Shown in pieces: positions 26,720 to 45,879 of a DNA stretch of 64,000 nucleotides. The notes under the pieces are model-generated. The model worked only from the letters and a program-made list of their open reading frames with translations, searched no databases and was not told the DNA's origin. The translations under genes and the position numbers were made by a program. Numbering within the stretch: position 1 is the stretch's first letter; every line of letters starts with the position of its first letter. The stretch comes from Betaproteobacteria bacterium (lineage in GTDB: Bacteria > Pseudomonadota > Gammaproteobacteria > Burkholderiales > SG8-39). The stretch is taken from assembly GCA_004297625.1 (NCBI GenBank), contig SCTY01000010.1, positions 74,324-138,323 of the forward strand. Direction: 5' to 3'.

Positions 26720-28313
26720 AACGGTTCACCTGAATGCCGCTCGCTTCGCGGTCCCACATCTCGCGATAGCCGGCCTTCGCGATCTCGCGCAGAGCCGGCT
26801 TGGAGATCTTCTGCGAGGGCGTCTTGGGCAACTCGTCGACGAAGCGGACATAGCGCGGCACCATGAAGTAAGCCATCTTGCGCACGGCATACTCGATCAC
26901 GGCGCGCTCGGTGAGCTCGGGCGTCGCCTTCACGATGAACACCGCGACTTCGTCCTCGCCGAGTTCGGACGGCACCGGCACCGCGGCCGCCTCCAGGATG
27001 GCCTCATGGCCCTTGAGGATGGTCTCGATCTCGAACGCTGAGATATTTTCGCCGCGGCGCCGAATCGCATCCTTCACCCGGTCGACGAAGAAGAGATAGC
27101 CGTCCGCGTCGAGGTAGGCACGGTCGCCGGTATGGAACCAGAGATTGCGGAAGGCCGCGAGCGTCGCCTCGGTCTTGCCGCAGTAGCCGGAAAACATCGT
27201 CCACGGCTGGCGCGTGCGGAGCACGATCTCGCCGGGTGTCCCGCGCGGCACCTCGACATCATTCTCGTCGACAATGCGCAGCTCCACGTTGTCGGACACG
27301 CGCCCGGAAGTGCGCGGCTTGTCGTAGGCCTCGCCGGCCGCCAGCACCGCGACCGGGCAGGCTTCGGAGAGGGCATACTGCGAGATGATCTGCAGACCCC
27401 AGCGCTCCTCGAGTTGCCGCCGGTTCGCCGGCGGCGGCACGAGCGCGGCGATACGCACTGGATTGTCCTGCTCCTCGGGCGTCACCGGCAGCTTCTCCAG
27501 GATCGACGCGACCACCATCATCGCGTTGAATTGCGTCGCCCGGTATCGATGAATGTCGGACCAGAAGCGGCGCGCGGAGAAGCGCGCCTCTAGCGCCACC
27601 GTCGCCCGAGCCCAAAGCGCCGTCAGCGTCGAGTAGTTAAGCGCATTGCCGTGGAACAGCGGCAAGCACGTGTAGAGCCGATCGGAACGCTCGAGCGCCA
27701 TGCGCATCGCCTGCGTGCGCCCGATGCTGAGCGAGTGCGCGTTCGGGCAGATGCTGCCTTTGGAGGGCCCGGTAGTCCCGGACGTATAGAGGATGAGCCA
27801 CGGATCCCAGGCGTTGAGGGCGACGTCGAGCGAACTTCCGCGCAGCGCCTCGCCGTCGGCGAGCACATCGTCCCACGTCGGAAGGTTGTGATCCGATGCC
27901 TGCTCCAGGGAAACAAGGACCATCGGGAGCGCAATGCCCGGCCATGCCTCGCGCAGCACCGGCAGGTAGCTGTCCTGGACGACGACATGCGTGCAGTCGG
28001 CGTCCTGCAGGTAGTAGCGCAGAAGCTCCGCGCGCGCGGCCGTGTTGATCGGCACGTTGAGGGCACCGAGCTTTGCCACCGCGAATAGCGTCAGGATGTA
28101 GCGCGGGCTGTTGTCGAGAATGGTCGCGACCCGGGCGCCCCTTGAAACTCCCCGCTTGCGCAAGCCGTGCGCAAGCTGCGTCGACAGCCGGTCTACGTCA
28201 GCGTAGGAGAACACCTCGTCGCCGTGCAGGATGAACGGCCAATCGGGCTGCGCTTCCGCGGCGCGCCGCAACACTGTCGGCAGCACTCGCTCTTGCAGAG
28301 GAAAGTCGATCAT
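26676..28313 (-). CDS. AMP-dependent acyl-CoA ligase (CaiC-like)
   Basis: YTSGTTGPSKG, LPLFHGNA, WFHTGD, DRVKDAIRRRGENIS and PKTPSQKI. Confidence 0.92.
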   Translation of the reverse strand: MIDFPLQERVLPTVLRRAAEAQPDWPFILHGDEVFSYADVDRLSTQLAHGLRKRGVSRGARVATILDNSPRYILTLFAVAKLGALNVPINTAARAELLRYYLQDADCTHVVVQDSYLPVLREAWPGIALPMVLVSLEQASDHNLPTWDDVLADGEALRGSSLDVALNAWDPWLILYTSGTTGPSKGSICPNAHSLSIGRTQAMRMALERSDRLYTCLPLFHGNALNYSTLTALWARATVALEARFSARRFWSDIHRYRATQFNAMMVVASILEKLPVTPEEQDNPVRIAALVPPPANRRQLEERWGLQIISQYALSEACPVAVLAAGEAYDKPRTSGRVSDNVELRIVDENDVEVPRGTPGEIVLRTRQPWTMFSGYCGKTEATLAAFRNLWFHTGDRAYLDADGYLFFVDRVKDAIRRRGENISAFEIETILKGHEAILEAAAVPVPSELGEDEVAVFIVKATPELTERAVIEYAVRKMAYFMVPRYVRFVDELPKTPSQKISKPALREIAKAGYREMWDREASGIQVNRFSADQLRPKGAKTT

Positions 28314-28353
28314 CGGCGGTTCGGTGTCGGCATTGAACGAGCGTGCGCGGCGC

Positions 28354-28383
28354 TTGACGCCCGGGCGGGTGGCGGATCAGAAT
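28354..28383 (+). promoter_or_regulatory. Putative sigma70 promoter for the tcuA-like operon
   Basis: TTGACG (28354-28359)-N18-CAGAAT (28378-28383), immediately followed by the palindromic box. Confidence 0.5.
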
Positions 28384-28391
28384 AATGTATC

Positions 28392-28408
28392 ATATTCAGC
28401 ATTCTGAA
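28392..28408. promoter_or_regulatory. Palindromic operator candidate ATATTCAGCATTCTGAA (copy 2)
   Basis: TTCAG-N4-CTGAA; 16/17 match to 22719-22735; at the divergent ligase/tcuA-like junction. Confidence 0.7.
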
Positions 28409-28417
28409 ATACCGGTG

Positions 28418-29914
28418 ATGCAGGCACTTCCCGAATACAGCGACGTGGTGGTGGTGGGAGCCGGAAACGCGGCGCTCTGCGCCGCGCTTGCTGCAGCCGA
28501 GCAGGGCGCGTCCGTCCTGGTCCTCGAGCGCGCCCCGGAGACGGAATCCGGCGGCAATACGCGCTTTACCGCCGGAGCGATCAAGTGCGTCTACGACGGG
28601 GTCGAGGACCTCAGAGCCTTGATGCCGCACCTCACGGAGGACGAGATCCGCGTCACCGATTTCGGCCAGCACCCCGAGAGCAAGTACTACGACGACATGG
28701 GTCGCGAGACACAGTACCGGTCCGATCCCGATCTGACCGAAGCGCTCGTCGCGCGCAGCCGCGACACGATTCGGTGGATGAGCAGCAAGGGTGTGCGCTT
28801 TCTTCCGATGTACGGGCGCCAGGCGTTCAGGGTCGACGGAAAATTCAAGTTCTGGGGCGGCTTGACGGTCGAGGCAACCGGTGGGGGGCCAGGCCTCGTC
28901 GAGGCGCTTACAAAGGCGGTGCTGAAGGCGGGCATCCCGATCGCGTACGAGGCACGCGCCATGGCGCTGGTTGCGGACGACGACGGCGTAAAGGGGCTGC
29001 GCGTGAAGCATCGCGGCAGGACCGTCCATGTCCGCGCGAAATCCATCGTGCTGGCCGCGGGCGGGTTCGAGGCGAACGCGGAATGGCGCACGCGCTATCT
29101 CGGCCCGGGTTGGGAGCTTGCGAAGGTGCGCGGCACCCGATTCAATACCGGCGACGGCATCCGCATGGCGCTGGATGTTGGTGCCATGCCGACGGGCAAC
29201 TGGTCCGGCTGCCACTCCGTAGGGTGGGACCGCAACGCGACGGAATTCGGCAACCTCCAGGTGGGCGACAACTACCAGAAGCATTCGTATCCCTTCGGCA
29301 TCATGCTGAATGCGAACGGCGAGCGCTTCGTCGATGAGGGCGCCGACGTCTTCAGCTACACGTACGCCAAATATGGCCGCGTGGTGCTTGCCCAGCCGGG
29401 GCAGTTCGCGTGGCAGGTGTTCGACCGCAAGGCGCAGCCGTACCTGCGCGACGAGTACCGCTTCAAGGGCATGACGAAGGTACGCGCCGACACGCTCGAA
29501 GAGCTCGTCCGCAAGCTGGACGACGTCGATCCGGCGCGCGCGCTGGACACGATCAAGGCGTTCAACGCCGCGACGCCGGGGCCGGAGATCCGCTTCGATC
29601 CCAATGTAAAGGACGGCCGCAGGACGCGCGGCCTCGCGATTCCGAAGTCGAACTGGGCGAACGCAATCGACGAGCCGCCATTCGAGGCGTACGGTGTGAC
29701 TTGCGGCATCACGTTCACCTTCGGCGGCGTGAAGATCGATACGCGGACGCAAGTCCACGACACGGACGGCCGCGTGATAGCGGGTCTTTACGCCGCTGGC
29801 GAAATGGTCGGCGGTCTGTATTTCTTCGGCTATCCGAGCGGCAGCGGCCTGATGTCGGGCGCCGTGTTCGGCAGGATCGCAGGACGGGAGGCGGCGCTCC
29901 GTGCGCGCGGCTGA
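28418..29914 (+). CDS. FAD-dependent tricarballylate dehydrogenase TcuA-like flavoprotein
   Basis: VVGAGNAALCAA, GGNTRFTAG, VRGTRFNTGDG, GERFVDEG, GITFTFGG and GLMSGAVFG. An alternative start exists at 28385. Confidence 0.85.
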   Translation: MQALPEYSDVVVVGAGNAALCAALAAAEQGASVLVLERAPETESGGNTRFTAGAIKCVYDGVEDLRALMPHLTEDEIRVTDFGQHPESKYYDDMGRETQYRSDPDLTEALVARSRDTIRWMSSKGVRFLPMYGRQAFRVDGKFKFWGGLTVEATGGGPGLVEALTKAVLKAGIPIAYEARAMALVADDDGVKGLRVKHRGRTVHVRAKSIVLAAGGFEANAEWRTRYLGPGWELAKVRGTRFNTGDGIRMALDVGAMPTGNWSGCHSVGWDRNATEFGNLQVGDNYQKHSYPFGIMLNANGERFVDEGADVFSYTYAKYGRVVLAQPGQFAWQVFDRKAQPYLRDEYRFKGMTKVRADTLEELVRKLDDVDPARALDTIKAFNAATPGPEIRFDPNVKDGRRTRGLAIPKSNWANAIDEPPFEAYGVTCGITFTFGGVKIDTRTQVHDTDGRVIAGLYAAGEMVGGLYFFGYPSGSGLMSGAVFGRIAGREAALRARG

Positions 29915-29956
29915 CCGCCGCGTCGGACAAGCAATTTGAGAAGGAGGGGTAGCGAT

Positions 29957-30922
29957 ATGAGTCTGCGTCGTGTGTTTGCCTTGCTCTGTGTGTTCTTTTC
30001 CGTGGCCGCAATGGGCCAGGAATATCCGACCAAGCCGATTCGCCTCGTCACGCCGTGGCCCCCGGGCGGCGGAACCGACATCGTGGCGCGGATGATCGCT
30101 GCAAAGCTCACCGATGCCTGGGGACAGCAGGTGGTGGTGGAGAATAAGAGCGGTGCGACCGGCACCATCGGCACTGATATGGTGGCGAAGTCGGCGCCGG
30201 ACGGCTACACACTGATCATCGGGACAAATGCGACGCACGTGATCGCAGTCAGCCTGTACGCGAAGTTGCCCTACGATCAGGAGAAGGACCTTACGCCGAT
30301 CACCCGCGTGTCGGCCGTGCCGCATGTCATAGCGGTCGTGCCTTCGCTCGAAGCGCGGAACGTGCAAGAGCTCATCGCGCTGGCGAAGGCGCATCCGGGA
30401 AAGATCTCTTTCGGCTCAGCGGGCAATGGAAGCACCCCACACCTCGCGGGTGAGTTGTTCAAGACCCTCACCGGGGTCAATTTGCTGCACGTTCCCTACA
30501 AGGGGACGGGGCAGTCGTTGCAGGACACGATCGGCGGCGTAGTGCAAGTGTCGTTCGATACCATGCCGTCGGTGCTTCCGCATATCAAGAGCGGGCGGCT
30601 GCGTGCCCTTGCGATTGCAGGGCCGAAGCGCGTCAGCGCCCTGCCCGATGTCCCGGCCGTCGCCGAAGCCGGGGTACCGGGCGCCGAAGGCATGACCTGG
30701 TACGGGCTTTTCGGTCCCGCCGGACTGCCCAAGCCGATCGTGCAAAAGATATTTGCCGAGGTCGTCAGGATCGTAAAGTTGCCCGACGTGAAGAGCCGGC
30801 TCGATTCGCTCGGCACCGAGGAGACGACGAGCGCCTCGCCGCAGGAATTCGCCGCCATGGTGCACTCCGATATCGCGAAATATGCAAAGGTCATAAAGTC
30901 GGCCGGTCTCAGGATGGATTGA
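29957..30922 (+). CDS. Bug/TctC tripartite tricarboxylate transporter substrate-binding protein
   Basis: [36 protein letters not shown] and HVPYKG. Confidence 0.93.
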
Positions 30923-30930
30923 CGCCCTCG

Positions 30931-31911
30931 ATGCGGGCGATCCTGATCGAGAAGGCTGAAAGCGGGCAGCGGGTCGCCCTGGGCGAAGTGGACGAGGATC
31001 GACTTCCCCAGGGCGACGTAACCGTCCGAGTCGACTATTCGACCGTCAATTACAAGGACGCCCTCGCCATAACAGGCAAGGCGCCGGTGGTGCGCAAGTA
31101 CCCGATGGTGCCGGGCATCGACTTCAGCGGCGCGGTGGAAGCGAGCAGTGATCCACAGTGGAAGGTCGGTGATCGCGTTGTCCTGAACGGCTGGGGTGTC
31201 GGCGAAACTCATTGGGGCGGGCTCGCGCAGCGCGCGCGTGTCAAGGGGCAGTGGCTGGTGCGCCTGCCCGAAGGCCTCACGTCCTACCAGGCGATGGCAA
31301 TCGGCACGGCCGGTTATACCGCCATGCTTTGCGTGATGGCGCTCGTGAAGCACGGCTTGAAGCCAGGCGATGGCGAAGTGCTTGTCACCGGAGCGGCAGG
31401 CGGTGTGGGCAGCACAGCGATCGCATTGCTTACTGGTCTTGGTTACAACGTAGTCGCTTCAACTGGCCGACCGGCGGAAACCGAGTACCTCAGGGTGCTG
31501 GGAGCGAGCGAAGTGGTCGACCGCGCCCAATTCTCGTCTCCGGGCAAACCTCTCGTGAAGGAGCGCTGGGCGGGCGCAGTCGATGCCGTTGGTAGTCACA
31601 CACTGGCGAACGTGTGCGCGGCGATGCGCTACGGTGGCGCGGTGGCTGCGTGCGGACTCGCTGGCGGCATGGATTTCCCTGCCACAGTCGCACCGTTCAT
31701 CTTGCGCGGCGTGACGCTGTACGGTATCGACAGCGTCATGGCGCCGGCGAATTTGCGGCAGGAGGCGTGGCGCCGCCTTGCTGCAAACCTCGACCGCGCC
31801 AAGCTTGACGCTATGGCAGGCGAGATCTCGCTGGGAGAAGCGATTGCGGCGGGCGCACGCGTGATAGCTGGTCAAGTGCGCGGGCGGCTCGTCGTCAATG
31901 TGAACCGCTGA
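30931..31911 (+). CDS. acuI: Acryloyl-CoA reductase AcuI/YhdH family (MDR)
   Basis: [38 protein letters not shown] and PFILRGV. Confidence 0.88.
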
Positions 31912-31923
31912 AAAGGAGGCGCG

Positions 31924-33123
31924 ATGGGCGAGCCGCCGCTCGGCGCTCTGGCGGGAATCCGGGTCCTGGATCTCGGGAATTTCATGGCCGGGCCGATGGC
32001 GGCGACCTGGCTCGGCGACTTCGGCGCCGAGGTGATAAAGGTTGAGCACCCACGCGGCGACGGGGTGCGGCACTGGGGCCAGACCAAGAACGGCGATCCG
32101 CTTTACTGGAAAATGCTGTCGCGGAACAAGCGCTGCATCACGCTGAACCTCAGCAAGCCCGAGGGACAGAAGCTGCTCCGTGACTTGGCCGCCAAGAGCG
32201 ACGTACTTGTCGAGAATTTCACGCCCGGCACGATGAGCCGGTGGAACGTCGGCTACGAGCAGCTGAGCAAAGTGAACCCGCGGCTCGTCATGCTCAGCAT
32301 CTCGGCCTACGGGCAGTCGGGACCGTATTCGCTGCGCCCGGGCTTCGGCACGCTCGCCGAAGCGATGAGCGGCTTCGCCTATATCAACGGCCAGGCCGAC
32401 GGGCCGCCGACGCTGCCGTCGTTCGGGCTCGCCGACGGAATCGCGGGCCTGAACGGCGCGTTCGGAGTGCTCGTCGCCTTGCGCCACCGGGATGCGCACG
32501 GCGTCGGCCAGCATATCGATGCCGCGCTCTACGAGCCGCTGCTCACGGTTCTCGGCCCCCAGGTAATCGAATACGACCAGCTCGGAATCGTGCAGGACAG
32601 ACTGGGGAGCCGGCTGCCATTCTCCGCGCCGCGCAACGTCTACAAGACGAAGGACGGCCAGTGGCTGTCGATGTCGTCGAGCGCGCAGAGCGTGTTCGAG
32701 CGCACCATGCACGCCATCGGCAAGCCGCACCTGATCCAAGACGAGCGTTTCCTGGACAACCGCAAGCGCGGCGCGAACGTCGAGGCGCTCGACAAGGAGA
32801 TCGCCGCATGGTGCTCGCAGCATACGATGGAGCAGGCGATGCAGATCCTGGTGAAGCACGAGGCGGCCGCGGCGCCGGTCTACAGCGTGGCAGACGTCGT
32901 CTCAGATGCCCACTTCACGATGCGCGGCAGTGTGGTTGCCGTCAACGATGCGAACCTCGGTCCGGTGAAAATGCAGGCGCCTTTCCCGCGGCTGTCGAAA
33001 ACTCCGGGGAAGATCCGATCGACCGGGCCGAAACTCGGCGAGCACAATCGCGAAGTTTACGGGGCGCTGCTCGAGCTCGGCGAGACGGAGCTCGAGCGCC
33101 TTGCGAGCCAAGGCATCATCTGA
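31924..33123 (+). CDS. CaiB/BaiF class III CoA-transferase
   Basis: LAGIRVLDL, RNKRCITLNL, DVLVENF and LADGIAG with the catalytic Asp retained. Confidence 0.93.
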   Translation: MGEPPLGALAGIRVLDLGNFMAGPMAATWLGDFGAEVIKVEHPRGDGVRHWGQTKNGDPLYWKMLSRNKRCITLNLSKPEGQKLLRDLAAKSDVLVENFTPGTMSRWNVGYEQLSKVNPRLVMLSISAYGQSGPYSLRPGFGTLAEAMSGFAYINGQADGPPTLPSFGLADGIAGLNGAFGVLVALRHRDAHGVGQHIDAALYEPLLTVLGPQVIEYDQLGIVQDRLGSRLPFSAPRNVYKTKDGQWLSMSSSAQSVFERTMHAIGKPHLIQDERFLDNRKRGANVEALDKEIAAWCSQHTMEQAMQILVKHEAAAAPVYSVADVVSDAHFTMRGSVVAVNDANLGPVKMQAPFPRLSKTPGKIRSTGPKLGEHNREVYGALLELGETELERLASQGII

Positions 33124-33134
33124 GGAGCGCGAGC

Positions 33135-33983
33135 ATGAAGAAGAAGCTGCGCAGGTCCTGGCTGCTTACTCTGACGACCGACGATCGCAAGGTGCAGAAA
33201 GCGGCCGAGTCGAGCGCCGATGTCCTGATCCTCGACCTGACCGACTCGGTGACGCCTGAGCTCAAGCACGAGGCGCGCCGCCGGGTCGTCGACTGGCTGA
33301 AAGGAAGCCATCCATTCGGCGACAAGCAGGTTGCAGTCAAGCCGAACAACCTTTGGAGCGAATGGGGCCGCGACGATCTGGAAGCGATATCGTCTCTTCG
33401 GATGGACGTGCTCTATTATCCGGAGGCACGCAGCGCGGACGAAGTGCGGATGGTGCAGCGCGCGCTCGACGAGGCGGGATCACAGGCCGAGATCGCCGTG
33501 CTTCTGGAGACGCCGCAATCTTTCCTCGAGATTCGCGAGCTCGCCGCGGTGCCGCGCGTCACCGCTTTCAACCATGCCCAAGGCGACCTGTCCGTGAACC
33601 TTGGCGTGGCCCTTACCGATAGCCGCGAGACGCTGCTCTACACTGCCTCGCAACTCGTGCTCGTTGCCCGGGCTTACGGCCTGCTCGCCATCGATACCGC
33701 TCTGCCGTCCGATTTGCGCGATGCGGCGTTAAGCCGCCGCTATATCGAAAGCTCTCGCCGTATGGGCTTTCAGGCGAGCTCGACCTTCTACGCGCCGCAT
33801 GTCGATGCAATCAATGCGGTCTTCTCGCCAGGGGAAAAGCAGCTCGCGGAGGCCCGCGAAATCATCGCCGAGTACGAGAAAGTGAAGAAGACGGGGCGAG
33901 CCGCTTACGTACGGCCGGATGGCAGGTGGGTCACCGTTCACCAGTTCAGGCAGGCGCTGGAGATGCTCGAGCAGTTCGGATAA
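33135..33983 (+). CDS. HpcH/CitE-like CoA-ester lyase family (divergent)
   Basis: RRSWL, ADVLILDLTDSV, LLETP, GDLS and HVDAINAVFSP. GGAG RBS before ATG 33135. Confidence 0.82.
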   Translation: MKKKLRRSWLLTLTTDDRKVQKAAESSADVLILDLTDSVTPELKHEARRRVVDWLKGSHPFGDKQVAVKPNNLWSEWGRDDLEAISSLRMDVLYYPEARSADEVRMVQRALDEAGSQAEIAVLLETPQSFLEIRELAAVPRVTAFNHAQGDLSVNLGVALTDSRETLLYTASQLVLVARAYGLLAIDTALPSDLRDAALSRRYIESSRRMGFQASSTFYAPHVDAINAVFSPGEKQLAEAREIIAEYEKVKKTGRAAYVRPDGRWVTVHQFRQALEMLEQFG

Positions 33984-33989
33984 CTGCAA

Positions 33990-35186
33990 TCAGGCGCGCT
34001 CGAAAATGGCGGCCATGCCCTGGCCGCCGCCGCAGCACATGGTCTCGAGGCCGTAGCGCCCTTTACGCCGCTTGAGCTCGTACAGCAGGCTCGCGAGGAT
34101 GCGCACCCCGGTCGCGCCGATCGGGTGGCCGAGCGAGATTCCCGAGCCGTTCACGTTGAGGCGCTCGGGGTCGTTCCAGCCCCAGCCCTTGAGCACCGCC
34201 AGTACCTGGCAGGCGAAGGCCTCGTTCAGCTCTACGAGATCCAGCTTGTCCCAGGTAAATCGCGTCTTGGCAAACAGCTTGGCCACGGCGGGTACGGGTC
34301 CGATTCCCATGATGCCGGGCTCGCACCCGGCTGCGGCCCAGCCGGTAAGGAAGCCGGCGGGCGTGAGCTCCAGCGAAGCGAGCTTGTCCTCGGCGACCAC
34401 AAGGCAGGCGGCCGCCGCATCGTTCTGCTGGCTCGCATTGCCGGCCGTCACGATACCGTCCTTCACGAGCGGCTTGAGTTTGGCGAGGGTTTCCATGCTG
34501 GCGTCGGCGCGAAATCCTTCGTCCTTGGCGAAGACGACCGGGTCGCCCTTTCTCTGCGGCACGCTCACCGGGACGAGCTCCTCGTTGAAGCGGCCTTCCT
34601 TCCACGCGGCCGTGGCGCGCTGGTGGCTGCGTACCGCGTACGCATCGGCTTCCTCGCGCGTAATCTTGTACTGCTTGGCCAGGTTCTCCGCCGTTTCGAT
34701 CATCCCGGAAATGCGGCCGAAACGCTCCACCGGCTGCGAGCGTTCGCGGCCGCGCGCCAGGCGATCGTGCAGCGTGACCGAGCCCATTCGCGCGCCCCAG
34801 CGCATGTCTAGGGTGTAGTACTCCACGTTGCTCATGCTCTCGGCGCCGCCGGCGAGCACGACATCGGCGGCGCCGGTCTGGATCATCATCGCGGCGGTCA
34901 CGACGGCCTGCAGCCCGCTGCCGCAGCGCCGGTCCGTCTGGATTCCAGGCACCTCGATCGGTAATCCCGCTTCGAGCGCGGCGTAGCGGCCGAGGCACGG
35001 CGTTTCGCCGTTCGGATAGCCGTGCGCGAAAACCACGTCCTCGATGCGCGCCGGATCGATGCGCGAGCGCTCGACCACCGCCTTGATGGCGGTGGCGGCG
35101 AGTTTTTCCACGGGTACGGTGCGCAAAGCGCCGCCATAGCCGCCTACTGCGGTACGGACCGGCGTCACGATAGCTGCGCGTCTCAT
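33990..35186 (-). CDS. Acetyl-CoA C-acyltransferase (thiolase)
   Basis: RRCGSGLQA, TAGNASQQND, LNEAFA, GHPIGATG and CCGGGQG. Confidence 0.95.
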   Translation of the reverse strand: MRRAAIVTPVRTAVGGYGGALRTVPVEKLAATAIKAVVERSRIDPARIEDVVFAHGYPNGETPCLGRYAALEAGLPIEVPGIQTDRRCGSGLQAVVTAAMMIQTGAADVVLAGGAESMSNVEYYTLDMRWGARMGSVTLHDRLARGRERSQPVERFGRISGMIETAENLAKQYKITREEADAYAVRSHQRATAAWKEGRFNEELVPVSVPQRKGDPVVFAKDEGFRADASMETLAKLKPLVKDGIVTAGNASQQNDAAAACLVVAEDKLASLELTPAGFLTGWAAAGCEPGIMGIGPVPAVAKLFAKTRFTWDKLDLVELNEAFACQVLAVLKGWGWNDPERLNVNGSGISLGHPIGATGVRILASLLYELKRRKGRYGLETMCCGGGQGMAAIFERA

Positions 35187-35232
35187 GGGCGAATCTCCTG
35201 CGATTAGACGAATGTGCTGCGATGGTACCGCG

Positions 35233-35616
35233 CTAGGCGCGGCACGCTAGACCGGCGAGGTAGTCCACGATGGCGTTCCCCGAGCTTCCCGGAGGAAAGA
35301 CCTTGGCCACGCCTCTCGCCAGCAGCCTCTCGATCTGCTGCGGAGGGACGTGGCCGCCGCAAACCACCGGCACGTCGGTGAGTTGGTGCTTCTCGATAAG
35401 GTCCATGAGGTCGTCGACGAGCGCGAAGTTCGAGGCGTGCAGGCTGATGCCGATCACATCCGCGTCTTCCTCGATGGCCGCGTCGACGATCATGGCCGGC
35501 GTCTGGTTGGTGCCGAGGTAGACCACCTCGAATCCCGCGTCGCGCAAGAGCGTTGCCACGACCTCGGCGCCGGTGGTGTGGCTGTCCAGCCCGATCATGG
35601 AGAGGATGACTTTCAA
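35233..35616 (-). CDS. Cobalamin-binding small subunit of an acyl-CoA mutase
   Basis: GLDSHTTG (DxHxxG), LRDAGFEVVYLG, EEDADVIGIS and VCGG. TTG start overlaps the mutase stop. Confidence 0.93.
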   Translation of the reverse strand: MKVILSMIGLDSHTTGAEVVATLLRDAGFEVVYLGTNQTPAMIVDAAIEEDADVIGISLHASNFALVDDLMDLIEKHQLTDVPVVCGGHVPPQQIERLLARGVAKVFPPGSSGNAIVDYLAGLACRA

Positions 35617-37232
35617 AGCTCGTACGGGCAGCGGATCAGCTTGAAGGGATCGTAGCTCAGGCCGCGGGCGAGGCGGATCGCGCCCATGATCTCGCCGGCC
35701 GTGGCGTAAGCCTTCACCGCGTCGATGATGGCGGGCATCAGATTGAATCGGTCACCCTTCTCAGCGTCCGCATGAAGCCGCCGCACGCTCGCCTCGATTG
35801 GCGCCATGTCGCGCGTCTTCTTCCAGTCCGCCATGCGCTTGGCGATGGCCTCGGCATCGCTCACCTCGATCGCTTGAACAGGAACCTGGAACATTTCTTC
35901 TTCCGGGGGGATGACGAGGTGGTTGACGCCGACGACCAGCCGTTCCTTGCTGTTCAGCTCCTGGAACTTGAGGTTCGCCTCTCTCTTCAGCATGGTCTCG
36001 ATGTATCCCTTCTCGATCGCGGCGACGAGCCCGCCCAGCGCGTCGATCTCCTCCAGGACGCGATAGGCCGCGGTCTCCACCTCGTGGGTGAGCCTCTCGA
36101 CGAAATAGGAGCCGGCGAGCGGATCGACCACGTCGGCGACCCCGGTCTCGACGGCGACGATGTGCTGCGTATTCAGCGACATCCGCGCCGCGAGGGCGGA
36201 GGGCTCAGCATAGGCATTGTCCAGCGTGGCGTTGTCGAGCGCCGTGCAACCGACCATGGCGCCGGCCAACGTCTCGATGGCGCAACGCGCAATGTTGTTC
36301 AGCGGCTGCTGGTACGTCATGGTCCGGCCCGAGGTATGGACCGCAATAAGCAGCTGGCAAGACTTCTCGTTCTTCGCTCCGAAGTGCTCTTTGGCCATCT
36401 TCGCCCACATGCGGCGCAGCGCGCGCACCTTGGCGATCTCTTCGAAGAAACGGGTCCCGATGCTCACGAGCTGGTAAGGCACCCGCATCGCGTCGTCGAA
36501 CTCGAGCCCGCGCTCGGCGACCAGGCGGCCGCAGATTTCCTTCAGCATGGAAAGCTCGATGGCGAGTGCCTGCGCGTTGTTGCCGCCGGATTCCTGGAAG
36601 TGCTGGCCGACCAGGCCGGCGCGCATGCGAATGCCGTTGCGCACGATGTACTCGGAAGCGTCGAGGAACAGCTTCATGTCGAGGTCGAAGGGCTGCACGT
36701 CGGTCTGCCCGAAGACATTTCCGAACGGCGACTCGGTGACGCTGCCGTGGATCTCGGCGAGGTCGACGCCCCGCGCTTCGGCGAGCGCCACCACGTAGGC
36801 GAGGCGCAGCGTCGAGGGCGCGCAGCAGCCAAGCACGGTAATCGATTGGCCGGTGAGCGGAATGTCGTCCATCAGCTCTTCGAACTCGGCGAGCGAGCTG
36901 CCGGGCCAGCCGAGGACGCCGTTCTCGCGCCGCGCGAGCGGATGGTCGGCGTCGATGCACGAGGAGGAAACGCGGTCGTGAATGACGCAGATGCCGCCGT
37001 GCTGGCCCATCTCGCGATACTTCTTCAGGACCGCGTTGGTGTCGCGCGAGGAGCCAAGGCCCGCGGTCATCCGCCGGGTCCACATGCGGCTGCGGTAGCC
37101 CTGCGCGTGGTAGCCGCGCGTATAGGGGAAGCGCCCGGGATCGCCGAGGTCGCGCTCGTACTCCAACCCCTCGACATCGCGCGGCCCGTAGACCGGCTTG
37201 ATTTCGTAGCCGTAGTCGGTGGCGTATTTCAT
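35613..37232 (-). CDS. Methylmalonyl-CoA mutase-family large (substrate-binding) subunit, atypical
   Basis: LGDPGRFPYTRG, FFEEIAKVRALRRMWA, QQPLNNIAR, DPLAGSYFVERLT and NLMPAIIDAVKAYATAGEI. Start at ATG 37232. Confidence 0.93.
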   Translation of the reverse strand: MKYATDYGYEIKPVYGPRDVEGLEYERDLGDPGRFPYTRGYHAQGYRSRMWTRRMTAGLGSSRDTNAVLKKYREMGQHGGICVIHDRVSSSCIDADHPLARRENGVLGWPGSSLAEFEELMDDIPLTGQSITVLGCCAPSTLRLAYVVALAEARGVDLAEIHGSVTESPFGNVFGQTDVQPFDLDMKLFLDASEYIVRNGIRMRAGLVGQHFQESGGNNAQALAIELSMLKEICGRLVAERGLEFDDAMRVPYQLVSIGTRFFEEIAKVRALRRMWAKMAKEHFGAKNEKSCQLLIAVHTSGRTMTYQQPLNNIARCAIETLAGAMVGCTALDNATLDNAYAEPSALAARMSLNTQHIVAVETGVADVVDPLAGSYFVERLTHEVETAAYRVLEEIDALGGLVAAIEKGYIETMLKREANLKFQELNSKERLVVGVNHLVIPPEEEMFQVPVQAIEVSDAEAIAKRMADWKKTRDMAPIEASVRRLHADAEKGDRFNLMPAIIDAVKAYATAGEIMGAIRLARGLSYDPFKLIRCPYEL

Positions 37233-38548
37233 GACTGCTCCTTCGGAAGAACGCGCCGCGCCTTCGCTTCGTAGCGCGGCAGGGTGCCGTACGGATGGCA
37301 CTCGACCGGCACCTTCAGGCCGAGGCGGCTCGACAGGCTGCGCGCCACGATCCCGGCGAGATCGGAGCTTCGAGCGGCGTGGCCCGCATCGCATTCGATC
37401 GCGACCGTCATCGACTTGGGCGAGCCGTCGACCGTATCGACGTAGATTTGCCAGGCGTCCTTGACGGTCCCGGGCGTGCCGGCGACGACGTCTTCGATCT
37501 GGGAAGGGAACACCAGGACGCCCCTCACCTTGAGCACGTCGTCCGACCTTCCGATGATGCGGCCTATGGTCGGCATGCCGCGGCGACCGCATTCGCAGTC
37601 GTAGGGCTTCTCGGCCATGCGTACCAGATCGTGCGTGCGCCAGCGCACCACCGGCGAGGCCTCCTTGTCCAGGGTAGTCACCACCACTTCGCCGACTTCG
37701 CCGGGTCCTGCGGGCTTCAAGCTCTGGGGATCGAGAAGCTCGGTGATCACGGCATCCTCGTTGATGAGGTGCATTTCGTCGCGCCGGTGAGCATACGGGC
37801 ACGCGGCGCCGAGATTCGGGCCGCCGGACTCGGTGGTGCCGTAGCTGTTGCGGGCGGTAAAGCCCGCCGGCATTCCGGCCTCCAGCTCATCGCGGAAGGC
37901 GCGCGACACGGCCTGGCCGCCGATGATCGCCATGCGCACCTTCCAGTCCTTGCGCGGATCGATGCCGTGCTCTCGCGCCACGCGCAGCAGGTTTGCGAGG
38001 AAAAGCGGCGACACTGCGGCCACATCCCAGGCAAGCTCGCGCACCCATTGCACCACGAGCTCGCTGCGACCCGGACCGACCGGAAAGCAGGTCGTGCCGA
38101 GCTCTTGCAGCGCCAGCTCGTGCGCGGGACCCCCGATCCACAGACCATAGCCGAAACCTTGGTAGACCCGATCGCCGGGGCGCACGCCGCTGCAATAGAG
38201 CTGCCGCGCCACCTGGATGGAGAGCTGCCGCAGATCATTGCGAGTAAACCCGAAAAGCACCGGCAGGCCGGTGGTGCCCGAGGTGGCGAAGAAGCGGACC
38301 ACCTTGGAGGCCTCTACCGTCAGCATGGGGAACGGATAACGCGCGCGCAGGTCCGCTTTTTCCATCGTCGGCGCGTGGGCCAGCCCGTCCGCGGCTGCCA
38401 GGTCGCGCGGATGCATGCCTGCCTTGGCGAAGTGCTCGCACCAGTCGGGCGAAGCGGCCAGCCGCTCGCCGAGCGCGGCCAGCTTGCGCGCCTGTAGAGC
38501 CCGCATGCCGTCCCGGTCGAGCGACTCGATTTCCGGATGCAGCATCAT
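37229..38548 (-). CDS. Phenylacetate-CoA ligase (PaaK)-family CoA ligase
   Basis: MEKADLRARYPF, ATSGTTG, GYGLWIGG, YGTTE, VRWRTHDL and GRSDDVLKVRGVLVFPSQIE. Confidence 0.92.
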   Translation of the reverse strand: MMLHPEIESLDRDGMRALQARKLAALGERLAASPDWCEHFAKAGMHPRDLAAADGLAHAPTMEKADLRARYPFPMLTVEASKVVRFFATSGTTGLPVLFGFTRNDLRQLSIQVARQLYCSGVRPGDRVYQGFGYGLWIGGPAHELALQELGTTCFPVGPGRSELVVQWVRELAWDVAAVSPLFLANLLRVAREHGIDPRKDWKVRMAIIGGQAVSRAFRDELEAGMPAGFTARNSYGTTESGGPNLGAACPYAHRRDEMHLINEDAVITELLDPQSLKPAGPGEVGEVVVTTLDKEASPVVRWRTHDLVRMAEKPYDCECGRRGMPTIGRIIGRSDDVLKVRGVLVFPSQIEDVVAGTPGTVKDAWQIYVDTVDGSPKSMTVAIECDAGHAARSSDLAGIVARSLSSRLGLKVPVECHPYGTLPRYEAKARRVLPKEQS

Positions 38549-38630
38549 GGTGTCCCCCTCGTGTGCCGGTCAGCACAAGCCAATCACATCGCTGGAGGAC
38601 TGTCTACTACTTCGACCAACCTTCTTGACG

Positions 38631-39257
38631 CTACCGCGCCCGCACGAGCGCGAGCCAGATGCCGCCCGCGATGAGGAACGATCCGCTGACGCGCGACACG
38701 ACGCGAGCCTTGCTCTTCGACAGCAGCGCGCCGGCGCGTCCGGTGATCACTGCATAGGCGCCGTCGGAAACCACCGCGACCGCCATCGCGGTGAGGCCGA
38801 GCAGCACGATCTGGGCGACGTAATTGCCGCGCGGATCGACGAACTGCGGAATGAACGCGCCGAAGAAAAGCAGCGCCTTCGGGTTCGACATCATGACGAG
38901 AAATCCCTGCAGGAAGAAACCGCCCTTGGGCGCGGGCGCGCTACCGGGCTCCGCGAGCGCCGCCGGCGAGCGCAGCAGCTTCCAGCCCAGCCAGATCAGG
39001 TAAGCCGCGCCCGCGTAGCGCAGCCAATCGAAGATCCCGCCCATCGCTGCGATCACCGACGTGAGCCCGACGACGAGGATCGCCATCAGCATCGCGAGCG
39101 CGAGCTGCGTGCCGGCGACATTGAGCAGTCCCGCGCGCGTGCCGTGGCGCAAGCTGTTGGCGACGATCACCGTGACCGTCGGCCCGGGAACGATGGCGAT
39201 CAGCACGCAGGCGAGGAGGTAGGCGAGATAGAGATCGAGCGGCATGGCCCAGCTCAT
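38631..39257 (-). CDS. LysE/RhtB family translocator
   Basis: IVPGPTV, GAAYLIWLG and NPKALLFF. ATGA overlap with the upstream gene. Confidence 0.92.
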   Translation of the reverse strand: MSWAMPLDLYLAYLLACVLIAIVPGPTVTVIVANSLRHGTRAGLLNVAGTQLALAMLMAILVVGLTSVIAAMGGIFDWLRYAGAAYLIWLGWKLLRSPAALAEPGSAPAPKGGFFLQGFLVMMSNPKALLFFGAFIPQFVDPRGNYVAQIVLLGLTAMAVAVVSDGAYAVITGRAGALLSKSKARVVSRVSGSFLIAGGIWLALVRAR

Positions 39258-40234
39258 CGATACTGGCCGGTGGCGATGGCCCGCGCACGGATGAGGCCAT
39301 AGAGGCTTTCGGTGTACGGCGCGCGCACGCCGGCCTTTGCCGCGATCTCCAGCGGGCCGGCAAGCAATCCGTCGATCTCGAGCGGCTTGCCGGCCTCGAG
39401 ATCCTGCAGCATGGAGGTCTTGAACTTGCCGAGCGCGCGCGCCATGTCGATGCGGGCCTCCGGATCGATGTCCGCGTCCACACCCACCGCGCGGCCGACG
39501 GCGAGCAGCTCGTTGATGATGTGAACCATATAGACCTTGACCTCGCGGTCCTCGATGAGGCGATCCGACGTGCTCATCGTGAGCGCGGAGACCGGGTTGA
39601 AGCTCACGTTGCCGAGCAGCTTCACCCAGAAATCCTTTTCGATCGATTCGCTCACCACGATGTCGAACCCGGCGCTCGCGAGCGCGTCGGCGATGCCGCG
39701 GGTTCGCTGCGTGTTCTTGCCGCCCGGCTCGCCGAGGATCAATTTCTTGCCCATGTTGTGGCTCACGACGCCGGGCTCGGGCGTCGAAGCCGAGAGGTGG
39801 ACGACGCAGCCGACGATGCGCTCCGTCGGCATGGCACGAGCAAGCAGGCCATGCGGGTCGAGCGATTCGAGGCGCTGCCTGCCATCGCCGAACCCCAGGC
39901 GGTCGAAGAACCACCACGGCACGCCGTTCATCGCGGTAAGGATCGAGGTATTCGCGCCGACCAACGGCCCGATGCCCTGCGCCACCTCGGGAAGGCTATG
40001 TCCCTTGACCGCGACCACGACGTAATCCTGCGGCCCGAGCGTCGATGCGTCGCTTTCGGCCTTGACCGAGGCGGACAGTTGCTCGCCGCTGCGTTCCCGG
40101 ACCCGCAATCCGGCGCGGCGGATCGCTTCGAGGTGCCTGCCGCGCGCGATGACCGACACCTCGCGGCCGGAACGCGCGAGCCAGGCGGCGATCAAACCCC
40201 CGACCGCCCCCGCGCCATAGACGCAGATTTTCAT
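39254..40234 (-). CDS. 2-dehydropantoate 2-reductase (ApbA/PanE) family
   Basis: GAGAVGG, AMNGVPWWFF, WVKLLGN and KTSMLQDLEAGKPLE. Confidence 0.9.
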   Translation of the reverse strand: MKICVYGAGAVGGLIAAWLARSGREVSVIARGRHLEAIRRAGLRVRERSGEQLSASVKAESDASTLGPQDYVVVAVKGHSLPEVAQGIGPLVGANTSILTAMNGVPWWFFDRLGFGDGRQRLESLDPHGLLARAMPTERIVGCVVHLSASTPEPGVVSHNMGKKLILGEPGGKNTQRTRGIADALASAGFDIVVSESIEKDFWVKLLGNVSFNPVSALTMSTSDRLIEDREVKVYMVHIINELLAVGRAVGVDADIDPEARIDMARALGKFKTSMLQDLEAGKPLEIDGLLAGPLEIAAKAGVRAPYTESLYGLIRARAIATGQYR

Positions 40235-40256
40235 GGTGTTATTCTAAGGAAAGCCC

Positions 40257-40912
40257 ATGTTCTCTTTCATGAAGAAGATGACCAAGCTGCTGCCGGCCGA
40301 GCACGCTTTGCCGGGACGCACGGCGAAAATGCCGGTGCCGGAAGCGCACTTCATCAACGGCCGCCGGATGGTGGCGCCATTTCCCGACGGAATGCAGCTC
40401 GCGCAGTTCGGCATGGGCTGCTTCTGGGGTGCCGAGCGTGTTTTTTGGCAGATGCCGGGCGTGTACTCCACGGCGGTCGGCTATGCCGGCGGCGAGACGA
40501 AGAATCCGACTTACGAGGAAGTCTGCACCGGGCTCACCAATCACGCCGAGATGGTGCTGGTGGTGTTCGACCCGAGGGGGGTGAGCTACGAGGAGCTGCT
40601 CAGGCGGTTCTGGGAAAGCCACGACCCGACGCAAGGCATGCGGCAGGGCAACGATGCCGGCACGCAATACCGCTCGGCGATTTACGCCTACGGCGACGAG
40701 CAGTTGCGCCTCGCCAGGGCTTCCAAGGAGATGTTCGAGAAAGCGCTGAAGGCAAAAGGCTTCGGCCCGGTCACCACGGAAATCCGTCCGGCGCCGGAGT
40801 TCTATTACGCCGAGGATTACCACCAGCAGTATCTCGGCAAGAACCCGGCCGGGTACTGCGGCCTGGGCGGCACCGGCGTGAGTTGCCCGGTCGGGGTGCT
40901 CGCGAAAGCGTG

Positions 40913-40913
<1 letters not shown>
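40257..40913 (+). CDS. msrA: Peptide-methionine (S)-S-oxide reductase
   Basis: [19 protein letters not shown] and [10 protein letters not shown]. Confidence 0.97.
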
Positions 40914-41277
<364 letters not shown>

Positions 41278-41281
<4 letters not shown>

Positions 41282-41721
41282 CGACCGCCGTTGTCCTTGA
41301 AGTAGCGCTCGAGATCGCGCGCATTGACCCACGAGAGGTCCTTCGGGATCTCTTCGGCGACGAGCTTCTGCACTTCCTTGCCAAGCTCCCGGCGCAGGGC
41401 GCCGAGGAATTTCGGCGGGGCCACCAGGTGCAGGCGGTCGAAGCGATGCTGGTTGCGCGCCTTCTCCAGGTAGTCGCCGACACGCTTGGCGAAAAGCTCG
41501 TCGTAGTGATCTCCCGTGCGCTGCTCGTCGTCGCTCGAGTGACCGCCGGGGCGGTCCTGGCCGCGGAAGCGGCCTGACGCGTCGGTGTTGATCTCGCGGT
41601 TGTGTAGCCGCCCTTGCGGATTGAGCAGGTCTTCGATTTCGAGCAGCTGCTGATCGCGGTCCGCAACTTGCAGGACTCTCGCGCGGCTCGCATCGGCCGC
41701 GATGATCCAGGTGGTCGCCAT
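41278..41721 (-). CDS. Host attachment protein family (AtsE-like / bacterial aeRF1-like)
   Basis: TWIIAADASRAR, LHLVAPPKFLGALR and EIPKDL. Confidence 0.85.
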
Positions 41722-41777
41722 GAAGGTTCGACTTGCCGCCAGTGAACGAGGTTCTTGAAAACGGGATCTAACTGCGC

Positions 41778-42917
41778 ATGAACCGCATTTTCGTCGGCGG
41801 GACCCTCGGGGCGCTCGCCATGTACTTTCTGGATCCGCGCGACGGCCGCCGTCGCCGGGCGCGGACGCGAGACAAGATGGTGCATGCCGCCCGGGTGCTG
41901 AACGACGCCGGCAAAGTGACTGCGCGGGACACCGCGCACCGCGCGAGAGGCATGTGGGCGACGACCCGCAAGCTCTTCAAGCATGAGGGCGTGCCCGACG
42001 AAGTGCTGGTCGGAAGAGTGCGCGCCGAGCTCGGGCGCGTGGTGTCGCACCCGCATTCGGTGGAGGTCACCGCTGCGGGCGGCCATGTGACCCTGTCCGG
42101 GCCGATCCTCGCCGAGGAGGTGCGCCCGTTGCTGCGCTGCGTGCGCCGCGTCGACGGCGTGCGCGCGGTCAGCGACCGGCTCGCCGTCTACGAAGACAGC
42201 GCGCACGTCTCGGGCCTGCAGGGCGGGCATCCGCGTCCCGGCAGCCGCTTCGAGCTCATGCAGGACAACTGGTCGCCCGCCGCACGATTGGCTACCGCCA
42301 GCGCCGGCGCCGCCATGCTGCTCGCTTCGACACGCGCGCGCGGCGGCATGTGCGCGCTCCTCGGGCTGTCGGGCGGCGCGCTGCTCGCGCGCGCGGCCAC
42401 GAACAGGAACCTCATGGCGCTTCTCGGGCTCGCGCGCGCGAGCCAGGGCATCGTGGTCCAGAAGACGATCGACGTCGACGCGCCGGTCGAGCAGGTGTTC
42501 GCGTTCTGGACCGACTACCAGAATTTCCCGCGCTTCATGCACAACGTGCGCGAGGTGCAGGTCCAGGAGGACCGCTCGACCTGGCTGGTGACCGGGCCGG
42601 CCGGCGTGCCGGTGCAGTGGACTTCCAAAGTGGTGCGGCTCGAGCCGAACTCGTTCATCGAGTGGCGCTCCCTCTACGACTCGACGGTGAAGCACGAGGG
42701 CAGCGTGCGCTTCCAGCCGAACGGCAGCGGCGGCACGCGGGTCACGGTGCGGCTGTGCTACCTGCCGCCCGCCGGCGCTTTCGGGCACGCCGTCGCTTCG
42801 ATGTTCGGCGCGGATCCGAAGGCCGAGATGGACGCCGACCTGCTGCGCATGAAGACCATGATCGAGACCGGCCGCGCGCCGCACGACGCGGCGCGTCCCG
42901 CGCCCAGAGAAAGCTAA
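41778..42917 (+). CDS. BON domain + SRPBCC (cyclase/dehydrase) fusion protein
   Basis: MYFLDPRDGRRRR, RVRAELGR...VTLSG (BON) and FWTDYQNFPRFM...DLLRMKTMIETG (SRPBCC). Confidence 0.82.
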   Translation: MNRIFVGGTLGALAMYFLDPRDGRRRRARTRDKMVHAARVLNDAGKVTARDTAHRARGMWATTRKLFKHEGVPDEVLVGRVRAELGRVVSHPHSVEVTAAGGHVTLSGPILAEEVRPLLRCVRRVDGVRAVSDRLAVYEDSAHVSGLQGGHPRPGSRFELMQDNWSPAARLATASAGAAMLLASTRARGGMCALLGLSGGALLARAATNRNLMALLGLARASQGIVVQKTIDVDAPVEQVFAFWTDYQNFPRFMHNVREVQVQEDRSTWLVTGPAGVPVQWTSKVVRLEPNSFIEWRSLYDSTVKHEGSVRFQPNGSGGTRVTVRLCYLPPAGAFGHAVASMFGADPKAEMDADLLRMKTMIETGRAPHDAARPAPRES

Positions 42918-42926
42918 AACAAAGAA

Positions 42927-42975
42927 CAGGGACAGACCACGATTTCCAGACTTCGGAAATCGTGGTCTGTCCCTG
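42927..42975. repeat. REP-like palindrome (21-bp perfect stem), possible bidirectional terminator
   Basis: CAGGGACAGACCACGATTTCC-N7-GGAAATCGTGGTCTGTCCCTG between convergent genes; same core as 58332-58397. Confidence 0.85.
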
Positions 42976-42992
42976 ATTTGCTGTTGATCTTT

Positions 42993-45684
<2,692 letters not shown>

Positions 45685-45695
<11 letters not shown>

Positions 45696-45879
45696 CGAAG
45701 CCTCCATCGTTGATCCACAGCGCTTCGGCGCTGCAGCTTTGTTTTTCAAGTTGGGACATGAGTCGCGAGCGTTCTTCCAGCAATGCGGGCAGATGCTGGT
45801 CACAACGGGCGATCGGGGTTGGGTAGCGCCGGATCTCCTCCGAGATCTCGGCGATTCTTCGTTCCAGCCAGGCGCTCAT
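45685..45879 (-). CDS. Small hypothetical protein (64 aa) with a YPTPIARCD motif
   Basis: [40 protein letters not shown]...WINDGG. AGGAG RBS; overlaps the acnA start by 11 nt. Confidence 0.7.

Follow-up and report, generated by a model that had tools for sequence, protein, structure and literature searches.

The acyl-CoA mutases characterised so far serve a handful of substrates, and each addition to their number has opened a pathway or yielded a biocatalyst. The closest described system to the locus reported here is the hcl-hcmA-hcmB-meaH cluster, in which 2-hydroxyisobutyryl-CoA mutase (HCM; PDB 4R3U) is split into a large and a B12-binding subunit and is encoded alongside a PaaK-family ligase (HCL, 6hdw). 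Further points of comparison are methylmalonyl-CoA mutase (MCM) and isobutyryl-CoA mutase (ICM), the latter together with IcmF, in which mutase and chaperone are fused. The iaa operon of anaerobic indoleacetate degradation, which Desulfatiglans and further sulfate reducers, as well as denitrifiers, are reported to contain, also joins a two-subunit B12-dependent mutase (IaaGH) to a CoA ligase (IaaB) and an uptake binding protein (IaaM) (PMC8360864).

We analysed a 64,000-nt window (the whole stretch of DNA under study, approximately 66% GC) from a betaproteobacterial genome of groundwater origin, which comprises 5.85 Mb in 87 contigs and in which the window lies on contig C40. Positions 33990-38548 of the window hold, on the minus strand, four consecutive genes that encode a ligase, the large and B12-binding subunits of a mutase, and a thiolase:

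37229-38548, minus strand: PaaK-like acid-CoA ligase, 439 aa (AMP-binding, AMP-binding_C_2); opens the cassette
35613-37232, minus strand: large (substrate-binding) subunit of an acyl-CoA mutase, 539 aa from the ATG at 37232, with an in-frame GTG at 37235 as well; PF01642, E = 2.6e-122
35233-35616, minus strand: B12-binding small subunit, 127 aa, TTG start, motif DSHTTG; PF02310, E = 2.5e-24
33990-35186, minus strand: thiolase, 398 aa, Thiolase_N/C; NF004853, 676 bits against a cut-off of 551
38549-38630, no strand: upstream edge of the cassette, intergenic between the ligase gene and a native LysE-type exporter gene

We propose that the ligase and the two mutase subunits constitute a functional cassette, acquired by horizontal transfer, whose adenosylcobalamin (AdoCbl)-dependent mutase belongs to an uncharacterised clade and would act on an alpha-branched aryl acid, a reading to which we assign a probability of roughly 0.4. 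That the mutase represents a clade of new specificity, other than MCM, ICM or HCM, is very probable.

The DNA at the junctions bears out the 4-nt overlaps claimed in a preliminary description of this sequence: the ligase and large-subunit genes overlap in ATGA, with AAGGAG upstream, and the large- and small-subunit genes in TTGA. A spacer of 46 nt separates the small-subunit gene from the thiolase gene, whose ATG is preceded by AGGAG. No terminator-like site was detected between the four genes in a terminator scan, and the window contains no Rfam match and hence no cobalamin riboswitch.

Both subunits display the hallmarks of the AdoCbl-dependent acyl-CoA mutase superfamily, namely the PF01642 barrel and fold, the catalytic His with the Arg and Thr of the WTxR loop, and the DxHxxG domain; a further hallmark, a gene for a MeaB-type G-protein chaperone nearby, is missing both from the window and from the 12 closest related loci. 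The small subunit scores above the cut-off of TIGR00640 (106 bits) and finds its best PDB matches in 2yxb (E = 3.8e-27) and the small subunit of HCM (4r3u_C, E = 2.9e-20), with DSHTTG aligned to the DGHDRG of both. The large subunit reaches no NCBIfam equivalog, falling well below the cut-offs for MCM (NF006944, 290 bits against 876) and for IcmF (NF045497, 107 bits against 1500), and its best solved relative is the large subunit of HCM (4r3u_A, E = 8e-79). A structural model, which the preliminary description had proposed as a check, was computed with AlphaFold from a 41-row alignment (predicted local distance difference test score, pLDDT, 90.8) and superposes on HCM 4r3u_A with a template-modelling (TM) score of 0.91, a root-mean-square deviation of 1.8 Å and 33% sequence identity, and on MCM with a TM score of 0.90, the range over 4r3u, 2xiq and 1req being 0.90-0.91. 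The cassette mutase is predicted to be a genuine AdoCbl-type acyl-CoA mutase with a pocket unlike those of MCM, ICM and HCM.

The distinctive residues of this pocket were located by HMMER alignment. The loop WTRRMTAGL aligns with WTMRQIAGF in HCM and WTIRQYAGF in human MCM, which places a Thr at the Tyr89/Ile90 position, and the GYH motif has become GQH. The segment GSVTESPFGNVFGQ aligns without gaps to GTVQADILKEYMAQ of HCM, so that the Arg of MCM is absent and a Gln stands where ICM and HCM have Gln; in the alignment with human MCM, a one-residue gap falls at the place of Arg207, with Gly on the Arg and Gln adjacent, and the Arg is therefore missing in either alignment. These results uphold the earlier manual assignment of Thr to the Tyr89 position and of Gln to the Arg207 position, with neither Tyr nor Arg restored by a proper alignment, as well as the reported retention of the His in GQH and of an intact DxHxxG motif in the small subunit.

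Conservation was assessed on 122 family members (the window protein and P0001-P0121). Invariant in all 122 are T56 (Tyr89 position), M55 (Gln88), I84 (Ala116 of MCM, Asp117 of HCM), G175-Q176 (the place of Arg207), Q210 (Tyr243) and H211 (His244), as are R49, T52 and R54, which align to the presumably CoA-binding R82, T85 and R87 of MCM. The invariance of these residues across the whole set argues that the pocket signature is not due to chance. Other positions vary: the I86 position holds Arg in 71 and Gln in 51 members, with Arg in the window loop (WT-R-RMT); the F117 position holds His (78), Ser (42) or another residue (2); the Gln197 position Thr (49), Met (27), Ile (22), Phe (16) or Leu (8); and the Gly242 position Gly (70) or Ser (52). 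The substitutions of Thr for Tyr89, Gln for Tyr243 and His or Ser for Phe117 are all towards smaller or non-aromatic residues.

Set against the characterised enzymes, the cassette mutase shares with HCM the fold, the Gln at the Arg207 position, His244 and the DxHxxG motif, but has Thr, Ile and Gln in place of Ile90, Asp117 and Tyr243 and reads GSVTESPF where HCM reads GTVQADIL; unlike the hcl-hcm cluster, its locus encodes no chaperone. The changes of Ile90 to Thr and of Asp117 to Ile (GICVIHD against DFD), both found in 122 of 122 members, lead us to reject HCM identity. With ICM and IcmF the mutase has in common the loss of the carboxylate-binding Arg, the RM that precedes the specificity residue in the IcmF of this same genome and, at family level, the partnership with a G-protein chaperone; it differs in carrying Thr instead of Phe, in its 25-26% identity to IcmF structures (97.6 bits, over residues 164-519 only) and in being unfused to a chaperone. 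ICM/IcmF identity is rejected on the exchange of Phe for Thr, the Gln at the Arg207 position being kept, and on the NF045497 score. The likeness to MCM extends to family, fold, His244, the CoA-binding positions assumed above and the B12 motif. It ends at Tyr89, Arg207 and Tyr243, where the cassette enzyme has Thr, Gly-Gln and Gln, and at Gln197, replaced by Thr, Met, Ile, Phe or Leu; the first two of these changes and the NF006944 score exclude MCM identity.

To delimit the clade, 5.8 billion proteins were searched, which returned at least 120 protein clusters at 73-95% identity to the large subunit, all of them with generic names. Among full-length representatives clustered at 50% identity, the family is represented once (66% identity, 834 bits) and is followed by a sister (45%, 518 bits), beyond which full-length proteins reach at most 41% and 397 bits, matches of higher identity being short fragments. 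The sequences found here at 67-95% identity are confined to metagenome-assembled genomes (MAGs) of Beta-, Alpha- and Deltaproteobacteria. The phylogeny that had been proposed as a further check was inferred with FastTree on 149 sequences, comprising the genome's six mutase paralogues, 16 family members and representatives of 480-800 aa, with shorter and longer representatives left out and IcmF trimmed to its last 540 residues. Family and sister group together with a support of 1.0, apart from the HCM and MCM paralogues. In this tree, which takes in MCM, ICM/IcmF and HCM types, the clade nests in no characterised group; identity with PCM (pivalyl-CoA/isovaleryl-CoA mutase) or IaaG is unlikely. 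The group falls inside a broad radiation of mutase-like proteins without names, whose pocket motifs are very diverse. The vast radiation of large subunits in the 50%-identity library (P0124-P0179) mostly lacks names and any known context, and its specificity loops and GxH motifs are unlike those of every characterised enzyme.

The genome itself encodes six mutase paralogues, including one of MCM type (RQYAGF plus the Arg), an HcmA orthologue, a fused IcmF (RMFAGEG) and one with RQYTGF. The presence of MCM-, HCM- and IcmF-type paralogues elsewhere implies that the cassette gene encodes neither the MCM nor the ICM nor the HCM of this organism. The HcmA orthologue (967 bits to 4r3u, with RQIAGF and DFD) belongs to a complete-looking 2-hydroxyisobutyrate set (C27:14633-18623; loci L001/L006), in which its neighbour is a MeaB-type GTPase (297 bits) and which also includes a PaaK-like ligase scoring 256 bits on TIGR02155; the other PF03308 (MeaB) matches of the genome, four in all, lie on C83, C10 and C14. 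A second non-canonical paralogue (C36:18611-20257, equivalent to L008:1423-3069) carries WTQRQLVGLG, GTSNQSDYLSHF and GQH, has a score of 400 bits against HCM 4r3u without attaining any NCBIfam equivalog, and is a further candidate for an unassigned specificity.

The cassette was gained by horizontal transfer. Across an even sample of 401 genomes of this order, two of which belong to the same genus, a match to the mutase at E <= 1e-120 occurs only in the window's own genome and in none of the other 400. The side of the window encoding LysE, PanE, Hsp15 and aconitase (approximately 38650-45700) is syntenic in four relatives, in which the ligase-mutase-thiolase stretch finds weak matches to paralogues only. 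At the DNA level, homology with the nearest cassette loci is confined to 35231-38549, its upstream end falling at 38545-38549. The arrangement recurs in contigs from independent sequencing runs: in a groundwater run of a different study (X2), one contig covers 34810-36959, from the thiolase into the large subunit, with 11 differing letters, and another covers 37018-38909, extending from the large subunit across the ligase and into LysE, with 18 differing letters, while a 2300-nt contig from a sediment run (X6) spans 37632-39931 and bridges the upstream edge. Since such contigs bridge both edges of the cassette, the arrangement is no assembly chimera. Plasmid carriage was also searched for, and 72,556 plasmid records contain no family member, the best match being 37% identical.

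A locus scan retaining one genome per species yielded 57 loci, of which 41, all from MAGs, encode members of the family (67-86% identical) and 16 (34-36% identical) belong to other clades. The hosts of the family loci are Burkholderiales, Rhodocyclales (including Sulfuritalea and Sterolibacterium), Rhodospirillales, Rhodoblastus, Xanthobacteraceae, Desulfobacteraceae, Desulfatiglandales and Syntrophorhabdus. Within 8 kb of the mutase in these 41 loci, the small subunit is found in 39, after the large-subunit gene, and a CoA ligase in 33 (PaaK-like in 22, another AMP-ligase in 12); TetR and MeaB occur in 17 each, the DctM and DctP components of transporters of the tripartite ATP-independent periplasmic (TRAP) type in 16 and 14, MmgE/PrpD in seven and a TfrA-like flavoprotein in three. 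The conserved unit is thus a ligase with two mutase subunits, often accompanied by TetR, MeaB and a TRAP transporter. Among the 12 loci nearest to the window's (81-86% identity), the ligase, 73-80% identical, is encoded directly upstream and MeaB is absent, whereas in loci of the Rhodocyclales type a divergently transcribed MeaB gene lies between ligase and mutase. The preliminary statement that no meaB gene is present was confirmed for the window, the genome's four PF03308 matches all lying on other contigs, but it does not extend to the family, where MeaB adjoins the mutase in 17 of the 41 loci, nor to the genome's own HCM, which also has one alongside.

Other neighbours vary between loci: UbiD (L027), a nitroreductase, a 3-hydroxyacyl-CoA dehydrogenase, HGD-D pair genes with an acyl-CoA dehydrogenase (L032), thiamine pyrophosphate enzymes and an IlvD-type dehydratase. 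A true PaaK (712 bits) lies approximately 5 kb from the cassette in L028, and a similarly placed open reading frame (ORF) in L031 clusters with the PaaK-like ligases. Together with the UbiD and HGD-D genes, these count as further hints of an aromatic substrate. In L014 (302-4355), the cassette is immediately preceded by genes for hydantoinase/oxoprolinase A and B, which recall the hydantoinase-like genes of the iaa operon, and in L030 (1213-3330) an ORF in the same position clusters with the B-type gene of L014.

Clues to the substrate come from the ligase and from the transporters of related loci. The best PDB matches of the ligase are PaaK (2y4o, E = 4e-64) and HCL (6hdw, E = 1.5e-30), and it scores 261 bits on the PaaK model TIGR02155, short of the equivalog cut-off of 646; it shares 32-35% identity with the two genes of PaaK type in the genome (C59 and C64) and 30% with the HCL-like gene. 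This closer resemblance to PaaK than to HCL is a weak hint of an aromatic substrate. The PaaK model has 16 matches in the genome, among them those on C59 (708 bits, above the cut-off) and C64 (604 bits, near it). All four TRAP binding proteins compared with the PDB (L018, L019, L025 and L038) match one group of structures. The model of the L018 protein (pLDDT 86.8) is closest to 7nqg, TarP_Rhp with 4-hydroxyphenylacetate (53% identity, TM score 0.95), followed by TarP with coumarate, cinnamate, ferulate and caffeate and by entries titled "specific for aromatic acid ligands". The earlier suggestion of an aryl-branched or quaternary substrate gains indirect support from these TarP-like binders in its aryl part.

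In the mechanism that we favour, the ligase would form the CoA thioester of an acid imported from outside, and the mutase, by way of a 5'-deoxyadenosyl radical, would shift the thioester carbonyl to the adjacent carbon and so convert an alpha-branched into a linear acyl-CoA, which could then enter beta-oxidation, in this genome perhaps including the adjoining thiolase. The substrate class proposed is an arylacetate-like aromatic acid with an alpha branch, as in the conversion of 2-arylpropionyl-CoA to 3-arylpropionyl-CoA and onwards to (hydroxy)benzoyl-CoA and acetyl-CoA. Such an acid is not open to direct beta-oxidation but becomes so once the thioester has been shifted, and it would fit the arylacetate-type uptake and ligase, the enlarged, Arg-free pocket and the local thiolase. 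Possible substrates are hydratropate, 2-(4-hydroxyphenyl)propionate, which remains after isoflavones are broken down, and perhaps profen drugs. The genome is predicted to be rich in CoA-dependent aromatic catabolism, and it encodes BoxB of the aerobic benzoyl-CoA pathway (754 bits), so it could make use of benzoyl-CoA. An aromatic substrate of some kind has, in our estimate, about an even chance; the 2-arylpropionyl reaction itself is a rather unlikely special case, and it is equally doubtful that with this clade a B12-dependent mutase acting on aromatic monocarboxylic acids, and converting 2-arylpropionyl-CoA to 3-arylpropionyl-CoA, comes to light for the first time.

Several observations weigh against the alpha-branched aryl acid. 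The thiolase, which the preliminary description had placed in the operon, does lie on the same strand 46 nt downstream, but it is a neighbour only locally: none of the 57 loci carries a relative and DNA homology stops at 35231, so that it is not a conserved partner of the cassette. The ligase clue is weakened by the genome's HCL-like gene, which at 256 bits scores much like the cassette ligase on the PaaK model, and PaaK-like ligases include the non-aromatic HCL. The 15 TRAP binding-protein ORFs of the family loci form one BLAST cluster, of which four were compared with the PDB; a TRAP system lies within 8 kb in only 14-16 of the 41 loci; and the locus in the window lacks both a transporter and a regulator of the cassette type, with 31% identity for the best TarP-like match anywhere in the genome. 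Deltaproteobacterial loci instead pair the mutase with a generic fatty-acyl-type ligase, MmgE/PrpD and the TfrA-like (fumarate-reductase-like) flavoprotein, and the latter two hint at di- or tricarboxylates. The earlier conclusion that the substrate lacks a carboxylate agrees with the loss of the carboxylate-binding Arg, but the loop Arg of 71 of the 122 members could bind one, and that conclusion is therefore not proven. Of the MCM residues referred to here, with R82, T85 and R87 as the presumed CoA-binding ones, PDB titles name only Y89 and H244 (the latter in 1e1c). Finally, no publication on the clade was found in a literature search of incomplete coverage, with papers on PCM and on mutase specificity outside it; among the matches listed, none joins a CoA mutase with a 2-arylpropionate term. 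The same search gave no support for a mutase in the isophthalate cluster of Syntrophorhabdus.

Some of this evidence could be accommodated by a small aliphatic branched substrate, as for PCM; the ligase would then activate an acid such as pivalate, and the product would pass to leucine-type catabolism encoded elsewhere. PCM has reportedly been described from Xanthobacter and a pivalate cluster from Thauera. The Gln that the pocket shares with ICM and HCM, the RM ahead of the specificity residue, as in the RMFAGEG of the genome's IcmF, and a cassette of regulator, ligase, mutase and chaperone around which no downstream pathway genes are conserved would all be expected under that explanation. 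The distance from IcmF structures is nevertheless considerable, the 41 close loci include no Xanthobacter or Thauera isolate, the exchanges at Tyr89, Tyr243 and Phe117 seem more than a tert-butyl group would require, and the neighbouring TRAP binding proteins are of aromatic-acid type; we regard a substrate of this kind as improbable. Still less probable is a hydroxyacyl-CoA mutase resembling HCM, acting on 2-hydroxyisobutyryl-CoA or a longer 2-hydroxy-2-methylacyl-CoA to give a 3-hydroxyacyl-CoA for oxidation and thiolysis. HCM is the best solved relative, its gene is also coupled to that of a PaaK-like ligase, and a thiolase would suit the end of such a pathway. However, the residues at the Asp117 and Ile90 positions of HCM are replaced throughout the family, the genome already possesses a separate HcmA orthologue with MeaB and a PaaK-like ligase of its own, the cassette ligase has little identity to that HCL-like gene, and the thiolase does not travel with the cassette.

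A mutase for aryl- or alkyl-substituted succinyl- or malonyl-CoA, either of the phenylsuccinyl-CoA/benzylmalonyl-CoA type of IaaGH or in alkylsuccinyl-CoA rearrangement, would account for the dicarboxylate hints of the deltaproteobacterial loci, for the Arg that 71 of 122 members carry at the I86 position and for family members in MAGs of Desulfatiglandales, Desulfobacteraceae, Syntrophorhabdus and Rhodocyclales, in addition to the shared complement of binding protein, ligase and two-subunit mutase and the hydantoinase-type genes upstream of the cassette in L014 and L030. Those genes are seen in just these two loci, though; Arg207 is missing in all 122 members, 51 of which have Gln in place of the loop Arg; only three of the 41 loci hold a family-III CoA-transferase relative, 26-28% identical; L032 and L029 contain acyl-CoA dehydrogenase genes, the L029 ORF forming a cluster with a single ORF of L032 and another of L036; and no Aromatoleum isolate is among the 57 loci. 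The window cassette contains none of the IaaF-type dehydrogenase, IaaL-type CoA-transferase or hydantoinase-like genes, the family-III CoA-transferase of the window being part of an unrelated convergent cluster. As these partners are not conserved here and the carboxylate-binding Arg is absent, we consider a mutase of this kind, judged by gene context and pocket residues, to have a low probability. That the gene is an assembly artefact, or a degenerate, non-catalytic paralogue of the sort represented by the beta chain of MCM, is extremely improbable. The cassette mutase does have the lowest PF01642 score of the six paralogues and a heavily remodelled GTIQNDILKE-type motif, but the family retains 67-95% identity and invariant pocket residues over three proteobacterial classes, together with His244, the assumed CoA-binding positions and DxHxxG, MeaB adjoins the mutase in many loci, and contigs of independent studies reproduce the arrangement.

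The clade combines sharp boundaries and strong conservation over three proteobacterial classes with a compact, expressible cassette and a contextual tie to aromatic-acid uptake. Were the alpha-branched aryl substrate correct, the cassette would explain how such compounds are broken down without oxygenases, with TRAP uptake, arylacetate-type ligase, mutase and chaperone forming a missing route by way of benzoyl-CoA in anaerobic and groundwater bacteria, and it would offer an enzyme for stereospecific rearrangements of aryl acids. Even with an aliphatic substrate, the invariant Thr/Met/Ile/Gln/Gln pocket would widen the specificity code of the family.

Downstream of the thiolase, a cluster at 26676-33983 converges on it, and synteny for this cluster is lacking in the four relatives compared. 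Its genes look like a pathway of their own for an organic acid processed in CoA-ester form, and comprise:

26676-28313, minus strand: AMP-ligase
28385-29914, plus strand: FAD_binding_2 oxidoreductase
29936-30922, plus strand: TctC receptor
30919-31911, plus strand: Zn-alcohol dehydrogenase
31924-33123, plus strand: family-III CoA-transferase
33120-33983, plus strand: HpcH/CitE-like lyase

On the other side, the native flank at 38631-45803, syntenic in relatives, encodes the LysE-type exporter, a PanE/ApbA-family reductase (NF005089, 393 bits) and an Hsp15-like S4 protein, together with:

40257-40913: MsrA
41778-42917: protein with BON and SRPBCC domains
42993-45803: aconitase

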